DNA of 50,724 nucleotides from a virus (Duplodnaviria; Caudoviricetes). This document shows positions 3,177-4,091 of this stretch, in pieces (the first letter of the stretch is position 1; each line of letters starts with the position of its first letter). The stretch spans positions 1 to 50,724 of IMG/VR virus record IMGVR_UViG_3300027777_000051; one strand, 5' to 3'. Below the pieces are notes generated by a model that did no database searches, had not been told where the DNA came from, and saw only the letters and a program-made list of their open reading frames with translations. The translations under genes and the position numbers were made by a program.

Positions 3177-4091
3177 ATGGCAATAACAATACCTACTAAG
3201 AACAACGCACCAAGGTCAGAAGCTCCAGATGAAGCAACATTAAAATTGATGTTGGCTAATAATCTTAACACAGCTGTTGAGAATCTAATTAGTATTTGGA
3301 AGTTACAGTATCGTGTGACACAAAAAGATGGAGCATGGATTCTCGAAGACCTACTCACTGGTGCTGACCTGTGGTTAAAGAAGTTTATCTCGAAAGATGA
3401 AGAGACTCTAGCCATGAAGAAAGAGGCTAAGACTCTATCGAAGATTGATGATGAGGTTCTGATTCTCGGTGAGACAGGAACTGGTAAAGAACTAATCGCT
3501 AGGTCTATGATTGGTGATAGGACTGGTGCGTTCAAACGTATTAACTGCGCAGCTATGCCTAAAGAGTTAATCGAGTCAGAACTATTCGGTCATAAGGCTG
3601 GCGCTTTTACTGGTGCGAACGTGGCAAAACAAGGACTAATGGTAGCAGCTAAGGATGGTGTATTATTCCTAGATGAGATTGGAGACTTGCCATTAGATAC
3701 TCAAGCTAAGGTTCTGAACTGTTTACAACCTGTCGATGGCAAACGATATGTCCGTCCTGTTGGTTCGAATGATGAGGTAGAGATTACTTGTCGTATCGTA
3801 TGTGCTACTCATCGTGACTTGGCTGATATGGTTAAGAAGAATCAGTTTCGTATTGACCTATACGCTCGTATCTCTACGTTTGAGTTGAGGATTAAACCGT
3901 TGAAGCAACGTATGGAAGATGTAGAACCGATAGTAAAAGAGATTGGTGTGTCGCTTAAGTGTGAGACTAAGGCTCAAGAGTTCTTGAGTAAGTATATGGA
4001 TAGTATAGTGAATAACGAATTGTCCCTTGCACTAAACGTAAGGTCACTTGAGCAATATGTGAAACGCTATTCTGTGTTGGGACGCGTTTAA
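3177..4091 (+). CDS. Sigma54-dependent enhancer-binding protein (NtrC-family AAA+), lacking C-terminal HTH
   Basis: Walker A GETGTGKE, INCAAMP-ELIESELFGH-GAFTGA loop, Walker B LFLDEIGDLP, RIVCATHRDL, FRIDLYARI, sensor II-like LNVRSLE, then stop 12 residues later. Confidence 0.95.
   Translation: MAITIPTKNNAPRSEAPDEATLKLMLANNLNTAVENLISIWKLQYRVTQKDGAWILEDLLTGADLWLKKFISKDEETLAMKKEAKTLSKIDDEVLILGETGTGKELIARSMIGDRTGAFKRINCAAMPKELIESELFGHKAGAFTGANVAKQGLMVAAKDGVLFLDEIGDLPLDTQAKVLNCLQPVDGKRYVRPVGSNDEVEITCRIVCATHRDLADMVKKNQFRIDLYARISTFELRIKPLKQRMEDVEPIVKEIGVSLKCETKAQEFLSKYMDSIVNNELSLALNVRSLEQYVKRYSVLGRV

Follow-up and report, generated by a model that had tools for sequence, protein, structure and literature searches.

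Phages are known to redirect host transcription by means of phage polymerases, sigma-70-family factors, sigma appropriators, anti-terminators, and classical activators. Sigma-54 promoters, whose canonical consensus is a −24/−12 element with GG and GC, are silent without an activator; a phage that uses them could, therefore, keep its genes tightly off and then turn them on in an all-or-none manner. A C-terminal Fis-type helix-turn-helix (HTH_8), by which the activator (bEBP) binds an upstream enhancer, is typical of bEBP groups 1–4, but activation does not depend on it.

Among bEBP-type sigma-54 activators, as classified in the relevant part of PMC7175178, group 5 (FlgR of Helicobacter and CtcC of Chlamydia) has no D (DNA-binding) domain and group 4 (PspF and HrpR/S) has no R domain. 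FlgR and CtcC, which are chromosomal regulators of host genes, are switched when a cognate kinase phosphorylates the receiver at their N-terminus; PspF and HrpR/S keep a C-terminal helix-turn-helix (HTH) and bind enhancers (PMC7175178, same part). The engineered fragment DctD250, which consists of only the AAA+ domain of Sinorhizobium DctD, is constitutive, promiscuous, and enhancer independent, acts from solution, and is ∼10-fold weaker than the tethered activator at the cognate promoter, according to the account of this fragment in PMC3844500. Among phages, the AAA+ protein Htm (Gp204) of Escherichia coli phage AV110 is structurally similar to RtcR, PspF, and NtrC (bioRxiv 10.64898/2026.10.06.757011, in the sections on this protein). 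Pseudomonas phage YuA has a single sigma-54-like promoter, which was active in a promoter trap and was seen by ONT-cappable-seq, and the passage describing it mentions no phage-encoded activator (PMC10914365, citing Ceyssens et al. 2008). In T4 (gp55/gp33/gp45; PMC2988020) and Mu (C; PMC4461284), an early phage product turns on later promoters that are silent with host polymerase alone, as we propose here; however, in the accounts given of them, these switches replace or assist sigma-70-type initiation, and none proceeds via ATP-driven sigma-54.

Here, we analyze the window, i.e., a 50,724-nt stretch that is the complete IMG/VR virus record IMGVR_UViG_3300027777_000051 of an uncultured freshwater phage, rated 99% complete by CheckV, which bears out the phage context assigned to its sigma-54 activator gene in the first-pass annotation. 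The features of this gene, all on the plus strand, are as follows.

3177..4091, plus strand: bEBP gene encoding the 304-aa sigma-54 activator, with ATG start and stop codon included
3177..3383, plus strand: N-domain, residues 1–69, upstream of the AAA+ start at ∼F70
3384..4088, plus strand: AAA+ sigma-54 interaction domain, residues 70–304, from Pfam, motifs, and fold
3468–3491, plus strand: Walker A, GETGTGKE, residues 98–105
Residues 133–139 of the bEBP: ESELFGH
3600–3617, plus strand: GAFTGA sigma-54 contact loop (L1), residues 142–147
3663–3680, plus strand: Walker B, LFLDEI, residues 163–168
3798–3812, plus strand: sensor I, VCATH, residues 208–212
3846–3872, plus strand: arginine fingers, FRIDLYARI, residues 224–232
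4035–4052, plus strand: sensor II, NVRSLE, residues 287–292

Judged by its sequence, the ORF at 3177..4091 encodes a bEBP-type AAA+ ATPase with intact catalytic residues. First, Sigma54_activat (PF00158) matches residues 71–237 with an E value of 1.4e-53 and 181.5 bits (curated cut-off, 20.2; 183.2 bits in the genome-wide search), and Sigma54_activ_2 is the second Pfam match (E 3.9e-17). Second, the motif positions confirm that all catalytic bEBP motifs are present, including an intact GAFTGA loop, as had been claimed. Third, the AF2 model (mean pLDDT 90.4) superposes on the AAA+ domains of FleQ, NtrC1, FlrC, PspF, and ZraR with a target-normalized TM score of ∼0.8 and an rmsd of ∼2–3 Å, e.g., FleQ (5exs; 0.84, 2.0 Å), PspF (2c99; 0.81), and NtrC1 (1ny6; 0.80), and a profile search of PDB sequences gave FleQ at 2e-68, covering only profile positions 68–290. 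The predicted activity is ATP-dependent opening of sigma-54 closed complexes. The protein ends exactly 12 residues after NVRSLE, in agreement with the first-pass annotation, and, as expected there for an HMM search, Sigma54_activat matched while neither HTH_8 nor any other DNA-binding Pfam family was found on the protein even at E ≤ 1; Response_reg of Pfam did not match either. The earlier description of the protein as having no DNA-binding domain is borne out for a C-terminal Fis-type HTH only; given the clade-specific RTATAAC repeats described below, the N-domain, or another phage protein, could still serve in tethering.

Like FlgR and CtcC, the phage bEBP combines a clade-6 AAA+ domain and a GAFTGA loop with the absence of a C-terminal HTH. 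It shares the missing D domain of group 5 but has no N-terminal receiver; instead, it has a 69-aa N-domain (none in one sub-clade), is viral, and has putative promoters in its own genome. By analogy with FlgR and CtcC, we infer that it can work without distant enhancer binding. Like PspF and HrpR/S, it lacks an N-domain of any known sensory type, and the level of expression or a partner in trans probably governs its activity; however, it lacks the C-terminal HTH that, together with the missing R domain, defines group 4. DctD250 is nearly identical in domain content to a phage sub-clade of 241–257 aa and is the best experimental guide to how the phage bEBP might work, except that DctD250 is a laboratory truncation, whereas the phage family is natural, conserved, forms a separate clade, and mostly carries a private N-domain. 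Htm, as presented in the relevant sections of the preprint, resembles the phage bEBP in having no C-terminal DNA-binding domain, in having a phage-only N-domain (∼80 aa), and in being proposed to act on sigma-54 polymerase. By contrast, the GAFTGA loop and motif are missing from Htm, its Walker B motif has DD rather than DE, its N-domain is NusG C-terminal-domain-like according to its authors, and phage sigma-54 promoters are not reported in those sections; the present protein keeps GAFTGA and DE, has a predicted helix-helix-hairpin N-domain, and is encoded alongside canonical promoters. Unlike what is described for YuA, the present phage brings its own activator, and putative sigma-54 promoters head most of its gene blocks. 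In the full-text literature searched, which covers few subscription journals, we found no paper on a GAFTGA-bearing bEBP from a phage that also has sigma-54 promoters of its own, and an earlier mention is possible.

Relatives of the activator are encoded in 235 IMG/VR stretches and form >120 protein clusters. The best 120 clusters listed are 47–100% identical to the phage activator, nearly all are 270–330 aa long (five are shorter and one has 396 aa), and many of them are on 46–54 kb contigs; the closest cellular matches are just 35–48% identical. The first-pass annotation had asked whether homologues form a phage clade, and they do: of the 70 viral AAA+ domains placed in a tree with 69 cellular ones, 67 group together on a branch (SH-like 99) that is separate from the cellular domains. 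Thirteen catalytic residues (G98, G101, G103, K104, E105, G142, T145, D166, E167, T211, R225, R231, and R289) are invariant in all 33 aligned relatives, and in all 33 the tail past sensor II is 12–20 residues long. Tails in the viral clade as a whole have 12–25 aa, whereas those of four viral entries that are long and cell-like have 101–138 aa. A recently truncated host gene, which would have spoken against the original proposal, is not what we see, because the short tail is conserved across the aligned relatives and the clade. Altogether, these comparisons indicate that the activator family is a natural, conserved clade separate from cellular bEBPs. At the nucleotide level, a megablast search of the bEBP gene against 50,697 phage records gave no match, and tblastn of the activator gave solely cellular-type bEBPs with <60% identity, which are on bacterial-contig-like records or unannotated fragments; a piece of the DNA polymerase and the capsid-like protein described below had no match by tblastn against phage records.

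The bEBP gene is the last in an early/replication-side operon (helicase, ligase, gp87, gp113, bEBP) and is followed by a replication block (gp201, HNH, exonuclease, dNMP kinase, Sak4, DNA polymerase, primase); the minus-strand late block encodes, among others, proteins of 138 aa, 620 aa (terminase-like), and 655 aa. Using the strict pattern TGGCAYR-N4-YTGCW, we found six sigma-54 sites in the window, whereas 200 dinucleotide shuffles averaged 0.105 and never had more than 1; the enrichment is, thus, about 60-fold. A weight matrix (PWM) trained on relatives only, and not on the window, gave seven sites at 17.9–28.2 bits. Five of these beat the best score of all 30 shuffles; the remaining two (42625 and 48012), at ∼18 bits, beat 29 of 30, with one shuffle reaching 22.1 bits. 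All seven sites have the orientation of the surrounding genes.

4134..4149, plus strand: sigma-54 promoter TGGCACGATTCTTGCT, 27.3 bits, 43 nt past the bEBP stop
41917..41932, minus strand: sigma-54 promoter TGGCATGGTTCTTGCT, 26.2 bits, head of the minus-strand late (packaging/head) block
34493..34508, minus strand: sigma-54 promoter TGGCATGATTCTTGCT, 28.2 bits, 154 nt upstream of the capsid-like gene 33004..34338
23586..23601, minus strand: sigma-54 promoter TGGCATGATTCTTGCT, 24.2 bits, 184 nt upstream of gene 22295..23401
45312..45327, plus strand: sigma-54 promoter TGGCACGATTCCTGCT, 27.1 bits, plus-strand small-ORF region
42625..42640, plus strand: weaker promoter-like site TGGCATGGGCGTTGCT, 17.9 bits, divergent region between two gene blocks
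48012..48027, plus strand: weaker promoter-like site TGGCATGGAAAATGCT, 18.0 bits, one base off the strict pattern

The 4134 promoter heads a 567-nt leader and then the replication block, while the 23586 promoter is in the distal structural (tail-side) block, inside a possible 150-aa ORF. The 48012 site precedes gene 48113 by 85 nt and, hence, lies upstream of the operon ending in the bEBP gene; this position would allow positive feedback. However, the site would itself need the activator and would not account for the first activator molecules. The sole source of the capsid-like call for the 444-aa protein encoded at 33004..34338 is ESM-Atlas feature similarity (score 0.95–0.97), which provides a lead, not proof, that this protein is the capsid. 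The promoter family consensus is TTGGCAYGATTCTTGCT, and in the form TTGGCAYG-N4-TTGCT it has all the bases that define a canonical sigma-54 promoter, with GG and GC at a distance of 10 nt.

Related phages have the same arrangement. In G001, whose activator is 59% identical, there are six strict sites compared to 0.14 expected, including one after the activator gene and one 139 nt upstream of an 82%-identical homologue of the capsid-like protein. Four further relative records contain 18 strict sites versus 0 in the control, and 80 viral loci (1.29 Mb) contain 101 versus three for the reversed pattern. A same-strand site is present within 400 nt after the activator stop in 43 of these 80 loci, mostly at 3–63 nt; in 17 of the 80, the stretch searched, usually ±10 kb, has no strict site. 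Sigma54_DBD was not found in the window in a profile search, nor in any of the four near-complete relatives searched. Because the phage has no sigma-54 gene of its own, it must use host sigma-54 RNA polymerase, and it probably runs its gene programme via this enzyme, host rpoN being assumed. The idea in the first-pass annotation that the protein is the master transcription activator of the phage, thus, gains support at the level of sequence from six to seven canonical sigma-54 promoters ahead of the main gene blocks, the absence of a phage rpoN, and the similar situation in relatives. We consider it likely that the phage bEBP activates the phage's own sigma-54 promoters.

In the model that we favor, host sigma-54 polymerase would park on the phage −24/−12 promoters as a silent closed complex. 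The activator would be made from the last gene of the early/replication-side operon and would then form a ring, the GAFTGA loops of which would touch sigma-54, and ATP hydrolysis would open the promoters. The promoters opened would be those after the bEBP gene (leader and replication block), of the packaging/head operon, of the capsid gene, and within the tail-side block, together with the three sites in the small-ORF region. The activation of these promoters, its temporal order, and promoter finding by the bEBP are what we infer from this arrangement. A search of sequencing runs brought up no RNA run that contains this phage. Regarding targeting, the chance that the bEBP acts from solution at high concentration, by analogy with engineered AAA+-only activators, is perhaps not far from even; tethering at promoter-proximal RTATAAC repeats, via the N-domain or a partner, is a serious possibility, although we would not call it probable. 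The repeats in the window are as follows.

4093..4110, plus strand: element TAGTATAACTCCTAACAA (RTATAAC type), 23–40 nt upstream of the 4134 promoter
41982..41999, minus strand: element TAATATAACTATTAACAA, 50–67 nt upstream of the 41917 promoter, same orientation
45291..45308, minus strand: element TAATATAACTACTAACAA, 4–21 nt upstream of the 45312 promoter, inverted
47941..47958, plus strand: element TAATATAACCCCTAACAA, 54–71 nt upstream of the 48012 site

RTATAAC first surfaced via a repeat finder and was then tested across phages. New in this analysis is that RTATAAC repeats, with a spacing of 10–11 nt, occur just upstream of promoters and only together with this type of N-domain. These repeats may tether the activator or another factor, and they bear on the alternative that the activator is enhancer dependent after all, with the N-domain (or gp113) as a new DNA-binding module that sits on tandem RTATAAC copies and tethers the ring beside the closed complex without looping. 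This alternative is a sub-mechanism of the explanation that we favor and leaves the role of the protein unchanged. In its specific form we regard it as doubtful. It finds support in the distribution of the repeats: in phages with this type of N-domain, 31 of 47 promoters have RTATAAC in the 80 nt upstream (random windows, 148 of 5000), but in the other phages only 1 of 53 promoters does (random windows, 152 of 9600), and TAGAAGWT is found at 11 of these 53. The copies are mostly in forward orientation and 10–50 nt upstream of the promoter, tandem copies are mostly 10–11 nt apart (one pair is 20 nt apart), and all four genome-wide matches of the 18-nt form are within 72 nt of sigma-54 sites, from which the pattern was derived. 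However, because the contrast between the two groups of phages amounts to about one evolutionary event, it is a correlation only. Also, RTATAAC is absent at three promoters of the window, i.e., 23586, 42625, and 34493, the last being the strongest and located before the capsid-like gene, and a host factor or another phage protein could bind the repeats instead. A blind search of positions −200 to −20 for a motif common to all promoters gave nothing beyond what random genomic segments gave.

The N-domain itself offers arguments in both directions. That the N-terminus is no recognizable receiver, GAF, or PAS domain had been noted before, and indeed it matched no known domain, although its length is 69 aa rather than ∼75 aa as AAA+ begins at ∼F70. 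The predicted layout comprises a disordered segment (1–12), helices at 19–27 and 31–41, a beta-hairpin (45–50/53–58), and a helix at 62–69; two helices followed by a beta-hairpin are loosely winged-helix-like, and winged-helix proteins are among the nonsignificant Foldseek matches. By contrast, Foldseek against the PDB gave no fold match (best E 1.2), with a model pLDDT of just 65.7. The net charge of the domain is zero (8 K/R, 8 D/E) and the conserved positions in the 33-row alignment are mostly hydrophobic, which makes it unlike a usual DNA-binding domain. Moreover, the sub-clade without any N-domain (241–257 aa, Walker A at residue 42–47) still has the promoter after the bEBP gene. No Pfam family matched the N-domain, ESM-Atlas features scored ≤0.81, which is chance level, and word-based searches did not find it in longer or shorter proteins. 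In a profile search against 1.84 billion representatives, only the phage bEBP family and its truncated fragments were recovered, bar one protein, and the domain is, thus, known only as a fusion to the phage-type AAA+ domain. The lone outsider is a 5181-aa protein with an E value of 2.4e-4.

The other candidate reader of the repeats is the product of the gene directly upstream of the bEBP gene.

2832..3173, plus strand: gp113 gene, 113 aa

This protein is very basic (21 K/R versus 9 D/E) and matches no Pfam family, and in ∼21 related loci a homologue is encoded no more than ∼0.7 kb ahead of the bEBP gene. A complex prediction for the bEBP and gp113 returned "no answer" (score 0.00), which speaks neither for nor against binding. 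In phages L025, L028, and L031, RTATAAC repeats are present while a gp113 homologue was not detected, favoring the N-domain over gp113 as the reader. In the most far-reaching version of the model, which we put forward tentatively and do not expect to hold in full, a large clade of ∼50-kb uncultured phages would rely on host sigma-54 polymerase for all middle and late gene expression; the minimal activator would be tethered, without a DNA loop, by a 69-aa N-domain with a new fold that reads tandem RTATAAC copies one helical turn apart; and sub-clades would have swapped N-domain and repeat (TAGAAGWT) to give orthogonal pairs.

It is improbable that the phage bEBP is a host-takeover factor only, i.e., a promiscuous activator of host sigma-54 promoters for metabolism, envelope, and motility, with the phage motifs being incidental. 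An AAA+-only bEBP turns on many unrelated sigma-54 promoters without enhancers (PMC3844500, in the part on DctD250), the phage protein has no C-terminal HTH, and expression of Htm, a bEBP-like phage AAA+ protein, leads to the reprogramming of 15% of the E. coli genes, as stated in the sections of the preprint (10.64898/2026.10.06.757011) on this effect. However, motifs that are ∼60-fold enriched, co-oriented, at operon heads, and conserved in position in relatives argue against incidental occurrence. Side effects on host promoters may well occur, and, by analogy with DctD250, the phage bEBP could deregulate host RpoN genes, as had been proposed.

Even less probable is that the protein is not a transcription activator but a bEBP-derived AAA+ ATPase with another task, e.g., remodelling, replication, or defence evasion, along the lines proposed for divergent AAA+ proteins of phages. 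Its only matches in the BFVD viral structure library are generic AAA+ proteins (MoxR, Lon, and Clp types) with ≤17% identity, and Htm, from what the preprint sections on it report, illustrates that loss of the sigma-54 loop can occur in phage proteins of the bEBP-like kind; unlike in Htm, though, a GAFTGA-type loop, mostly GAFTGA or GSFTGA, is retained in 74 of 76 viral proteins scanned, the DE of Walker B is retained, and the family co-travels with sigma-54 promoters. Finally, although the 25 large minus-strand-block proteins without PHROG match, nine of which gave nothing in a Pfam scan save a weak HTH_40 match (E 0.0035) on the 138-aa protein, could hide a transcription protein, there is very little chance that the −24/−12-like motifs are read by another factor, e.g., an unrecognized phage one, and resemble sigma-54 elements by coincidence, given a family consensus that agrees with the generally accepted canonical element at every defining base and a motif directly after a bona fide bEBP gene in 43 of 80 loci.

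If the phage bEBP activates the phage's own promoters, an ATP-driven sigma-54 activator combined with sigma-54 promoters ahead of the genes for replication, packaging, capsid, and tail would extend the repertoire of phage strategies. The family is not rare and offers the smallest natural bEBPs (241–304 aa), each with matched promoters. Because the sub-clades differ in promoter-proximal repeats, activator/promoter pairs may be orthogonal, and such pairs, if they are, would be useful for synthetic sigma-54 circuits. Mutants in rpoN should not support growth of these phages, which, as a side effect, may also turn on the sigma-54 regulon of the host.

A 14-mer, TTGTCTGGAGAGTT, which occurs exactly twice (4159 and 41965), each time near a sigma-54 site, was dropped because, by our own estimate, chance alone would give ∼10 exact pairs of this kind in 50 kb. 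A tRNA-like element was also dropped; it was not conserved in seven related loci scanned, and standard ARAGORN found no tRNA genes in the window. In the 41.3–50.7 kb region, sigma-70-type promoters were at chance level (23 found versus 25.2 expected), as was a Bacteroidota-type promoter pattern in the early region. Shine-Dalgarno-like motifs precede just 8 of 35 start codons, which is a weak sign, compatible with a Bacteroidota-like host.

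The ORF at 3177..4091 (+) encodes a sigma-54 activator (bEBP) that lacks a Fis-type HTH, and, with high probability, it represents a minimal virus-encoded activator coupled to viral sigma-54 promoters. Pfam assigns residues 71-237 to Sigma54_activat (1.4e-53) and finds nothing like HTH_8 even at E≤1, in agreement with the outcome expected in the first-pass annotation. All catalytic bEBP motifs listed there, including an intact GAFTGA loop, can be located, as can the end of the protein 12 residues past sensor II:

3177..4091 (+), activator gene, ORF of 304 aa
Residues 98-105, Walker A
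Residues 142-147, GAFTGA
Residues 163-168, Walker B
Residues 208-212, sensor I
Residues 224-232, arginine fingers
Residues 287-292, sensor II (NVRSLE), followed by exactly 12 residues

The AlphaFold2 model (33 relatives in the input alignment; mean pLDDT 90.4) superposes with the solved bEBP central domains of FleQ, NtrC1, FlrC, PspF, ZraR, NifA and LuxO at a target-normalised TM of ~0.8, and, among PDB sequences, the family profile matches the same bEBPs with E-values between 1e-54 and 2e-68, each match being confined to the part that follows profile position 57-73. Because the AAA+ domain starts at residue 70, at a conserved 'FIT/FIS' in the alignment, the N-terminal extension comprises 69 residues rather than the roughly 75 first estimated; the accompanying statement that it is not a recognisable receiver, GAF or PAS domain holds.

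The search for sigma-54 promoters in the window can be regarded as the decisive in silico test of the activator interpretation, and its outcome was positive. When up to 2 mismatches are allowed, the canonical pattern matches 52 times versus 35.2 expected, and a tight family, TGGCAYGRTTCYTGC, is among these matches. Six sites fit the strict pattern TGGCAYR-N4-YTGCW (4134+, 23586-, 34493-, 41917-, 42625+ and 45312+, named by start and strand), compared to a mean of 0.105 and a maximum of 1 in 200 dinucleotide-preserving shuffles. A weight matrix trained on related-phage sites alone, with the window left out, scores these six sites and 48012+ at 17.9-28.2 bits and the next best site at 10.7. Because the best score per shuffle ranges from 3.7 to 22.1 (30 shuffles), five sites exceed every shuffle, whereas two are marginal. 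The seven sites are all co-directional with neighbouring genes, and their placement appears biologically sensible:

4134 (+), predicted sigma-54 promoter, 43 nt past the activator stop codon; heads a 567-nt leader and the replication block
41917 (-), predicted sigma-54 promoter, head of the minus-strand block
34493 (-), predicted sigma-54 promoter, 154 nt before the capsid-like gene; strongest in the window
23586 (-), predicted sigma-54 promoter within the distal structural block
42625, 45312 and 48012 (+), three predicted sigma-54 promoters in a small-ORF region; 48012 is weak and lies upstream of the activator's operon

The excess of strict sites, their orientation and their position before gene blocks support in silico the original proposal that the protein is the phage's own transcription activator at phage sigma-54 promoters. 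Scans for sigma-70-type and Bacteroidota-type promoters that could start transcription of the activator's operon gave chance levels. The window contains no Sigma54_DBD, and the phage would, therefore, have to use host sigma-54.

These promoters recur in related phages. G001, a relative with an activator 59% identical to that of the window (100% complete at 51,757 bases, with direct terminal repeats), has six strict sites versus 0.14 expected, with sites ~60 nt past its activator gene, 139 nt upstream of its capsid-like gene (which shares 82% identity with that of the window) and at the start of its late block. Another four near-complete records contain 18 strict sites and no match to a reversed control pattern, and Sigma54_DBD was absent from 4 of 4 relatives' records searched. 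The 80 viral loci retrieved with the family alignment (not de-duplicated; 1.29 Mb in total) contain 101 matches to the strict pattern and 3 to its reversed control; a same-strand site lies ≤400 nt past the activator stop in 43 of these non-de-duplicated loci, mostly at 3-63 nt, and one further locus (L021) has a site after its activator gene. The family consensus from 101 distinct sites, TTGGCAYG-aTTC-TTGCT, with T following TTGC in 98%, matches the canonical sigma-54 consensus.

The activator belongs to a sizeable family. A word-indexed search of 5.8 billion proteins gave 8000 matches, the best 120 clusters of which share 47-100% identity with the query over 59-100% of its length (at least 94% in most), are nearly all 270-330 aa long (five shorter, one of 396 aa), carry AAA+-type Pfam domains only and lie repeatedly on 46-54 kb contigs. 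IMG/VR holds 235 stretches encoding relatives. The matching PHROGs family, phrog_7998, is labelled 'unknown function', and the BFVD viral structure library returned generic AAA+ proteins only. None of the catalytic residues varies in an alignment of 33 sequences, all of which end 12-20 residues past sensor II. Among 76 viral ORFs, the sigma-54 contact loop reads GSFTGA in 42, GAFTGA in 28 and a close variant in 4 and is missing in 2, while the tail past sensor II measures 12-25 aa except in the long entries L066, L069, L077 and L085 (101-138 aa). The best cellular matches, from 598 pattern-selected stretches of 185,579 species genomes, are 35-48% identical with the AAA+ domain covered. In a quick, midpoint-rooted FastTree phylogeny of this domain, with cellular sampling restricted to the nearest sequences (160 matches, 22 short or duplicate rows dropped, 139 rows left), 67 of 70 viral rows form one clade (SH-like 99) that excludes all 69 cellular rows, with which three long viral entries (L071, L077 and L085) group instead. 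At the level of the AAA+ domain, the tree shows the distinct phage lineage that the first-pass annotation had proposed to look for, without bearing on that lineage's origin. The alternative named there, a recently truncated host gene unconserved in related phages, is clearly contradicted by the short tails conserved among relatives.

We suggest a model in which host sigma-54 polymerase sits on phage promoters as closed complexes, and in which the activator, encoded by the last gene of the helicase-ligase-gp87-gp113 operon, would accumulate and then open these promoters by ATP hydrolysis via its GAFTGA loops. The promoter directly past the activator gene would drive the replication block, the minus-strand promoters would drive packaging, capsid and tail genes, and the weak 48012 site could provide positive feedback. 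DctD250, an engineered AAA+-only fragment of Sinorhizobium DctD, is described in PMC3844500 as constitutive, promiscuous and enhancer-independent and as ~10-fold weaker than a tethered activator. Given this precedent, collateral activation of host sigma-54 genes by the phage activator is plausible.

The architecture differs from those of known bEBPs. A review (PMC7175178) tabulates five groups, of which group 5 (FlgR, CtcC) has a receiver but no DNA-binding domain, and group 4 (PspF, HrpR/S) retains the HTH in the absence of a regulatory domain. Because both the receiver or regulatory domain and the HTH are lacking, the phage family fits neither group. Every catalytic-domain feature tested for is present in the phage activator, whereas the C-terminal HTH and receiver are absent; it is, therefore, a Sigma54_activat family member of new architecture in a new setting, and its sequence suggests that it works like a bEBP. 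The nearest phage precedent found, Htm (Gp204 of E. coli phage AV110), is described by its authors as devoid of the GAFTGA loop and degenerate in Walker B (preprint 10.64898/2026.10.06.757011), whereas both are intact in the window's activator. Phage YuA reportedly depends on sigma-70 and sigma-54 and has one sigma-54-like promoter; in contrast to the window phage, which encodes an activator, the accessible text on YuA mentions none (PMC10914365). No account of a phage-encoded activator that carries GAFTGA and is paired with promoters of its own emerged from full-text literature searches, mostly outside subscription journals. The novelty would lie in a natural, minimal, virus-encoded sigma-54 activator family paired with viral sigma-54 promoters.

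The N-domain (residues 1-69) is accessory and outside the core mechanism, because a sub-clade without it (L068, L072-L084; 241-257 aa, Walker A at residue 42-47) still has a sigma-54 promoter 3-46 nt past the activator gene. In the model, residues 1-12 are disordered and are followed by two helices, a beta-hairpin and a helix. Modelled alone, the domain reached a mediocre pLDDT of 65.7, and a Foldseek search of the PDB with this model gave nothing significant (best E 1.2), with several winged-helix proteins among the non-significant matches. The domain is charge neutral (8 K/R, 8 D/E), and its conserved positions are mainly hydrophobic. A search of 1.84 billion proteins with its profile yielded no more than 24 representatives at E≤0.001: nine of 235-306 aa, fourteen of 58-199 aa and one of 5181 aa (E 2.4e-4). 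Six of seven short proteins fetched continue into the AAA+ start or Walker A and are, therefore, cut-off N-terminal pieces of the same family; word-based searches found the domain in neither longer nor shorter proteins.

A repeat finder detected an 18-nt element, TAATATAACYMYTAACAA, near window promoters. With up to 3 mismatches, all four genome-wide matches lie 4-72 nt upstream of sigma-54 sites, a circular result as the pattern was derived from those sites. In an independent test in 25 records of other phages whose activator has a window-type N-domain, 31 of 47 distinct strict promoters have RTATAAC ≤80 nt upstream, versus 148 of 5000 random 80-nt windows; the remaining viral-clade loci have it at 1 of 53 promoters versus 152 of 9600 random windows. 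These latter loci have TAGAAGWT, sometimes duplicated, at 11 of 53 promoters versus 144 of 9600 windows, and its presence upstream of sigma-54 promoters in L056, L060, L068 and L072-L084, whose activators lack a window-type N-domain, hints at sub-clade-specific cis elements. The group contrast in RTATAAC is essentially one evolutionary event. RTATAAC copies are mostly forward, 10-50 nt upstream of TGGCA, and tandem copies are spaced by 10-11 nt in six of seven adjacent pairs and by 20 nt in one. The element looks like a putative binding site for a sequence-specific factor beside the closed complex, and such clade-specific repeats possibly tether the activator. Three window promoters lack it, including the strongest, before the capsid gene. 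The N-domain, the basic protein gp113 or a host factor are possible binders, but in three phages the repeats are present and a gp113 homologue is undetectable, which counts against gp113. In G001 (L004/L005), several copies of a palindrome, CGTTAACG or TATCGTTAACGATA, lie within ~100 nt upstream of promoters 25397, 33143 and 39653; this palindrome is absent at the window's promoters.

At 50,724 bases, the window corresponds to an entire IMG/VR virus record (99% complete by CheckV). Its plus-strand replication-type block encodes a helicase, ATP-dependent DNA ligase, HNH endonuclease, exonuclease, dNMP kinase, Sak4-like annealing protein, DNA polymerase and primase. Features on both strands include:

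49316..50722 and 1..1494 (+), helicase gene split by the record ends; 3'-open and 5'-open ORFs, each matching PHROG helicase families
2832..3173 (+), gp113, 113 aa, very basic (21 K/R, 9 D/E), directly 5' of the activator gene
4562..4670 (+), tRNA-like gene within the 567-nt leader that separates the 4134 promoter from gene 4717
9411..10985 and 10987..12150 (+), DNA polymerase, two adjacent ORFs matching the same PHROG polymerase profile at successive positions 667-948 and 980-1231
13695..41381 (-), one long 28-kb block with 25 large ORFs (one of 1837 aa)
33004..34338 (-), 444-aa capsid-like product; ESM-Atlas features similar to phage major capsid families (0.95-0.97)
39110..40972 (-), 620-aa product, 58% identical to its counterpart in a relative

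The split helicase gene implies that the record is a linearised circle or a circularly permuted genome. None of the 25 large minus-strand ORFs matches PHROG, and Pfam scans of nine gave nothing except one weak HTH_40 match; the block presumably represents the virion module of a phage lineage that is very divergent. The resemblance of the 444-aa product, its sole capsid-like protein, to a capsid is a lead only. An INPHARED copy yielded no cultured relatives, by DNA or by three proteins tried. gp113 matches no Pfam or PHROG family, its homologues adjoin the activator gene in about 21 related loci, and it could be a nucleic-acid binder.

The tRNA-like gene scores 37.5 bits with Rfam tRNA (gathering cut-off 29) and has 38 nt inserted in its anticodon region. 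ARAGORN reports nothing there in standard mode, while its intron mode gives a tRNA-Ile(AAT) that has a long extra arm and an intron of 18 nt; scans of 7 related loci revealed no counterpart. A lenient Shine-Dalgarno-like word precedes only 8 of 35 window start codons, and upstream regions are A-rich; together with the freshwater origin, this would fit a Bacteroidota-like host, against which counts the lack of enrichment of the Bacteroidota promoter pattern in the window. The exact 14-mer TTGTCTGGAGAGTT occurs twice in the window, at 4159..4172 (+), just downstream of the 4134 promoter, and at 41965..41978 (-), ~33 nt upstream of the 41917 promoter; in a genome of this size, chance alone should produce such exact pairs, and the two copies may be meaningless. 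Between the two gene blocks, a divergent region of low GC contains 19-nt direct repeats 27 nt apart (42153..42197) and a 37-nt inverted repeat with arms 100 nt apart (42196..42369), and is possibly an origin or operator region.
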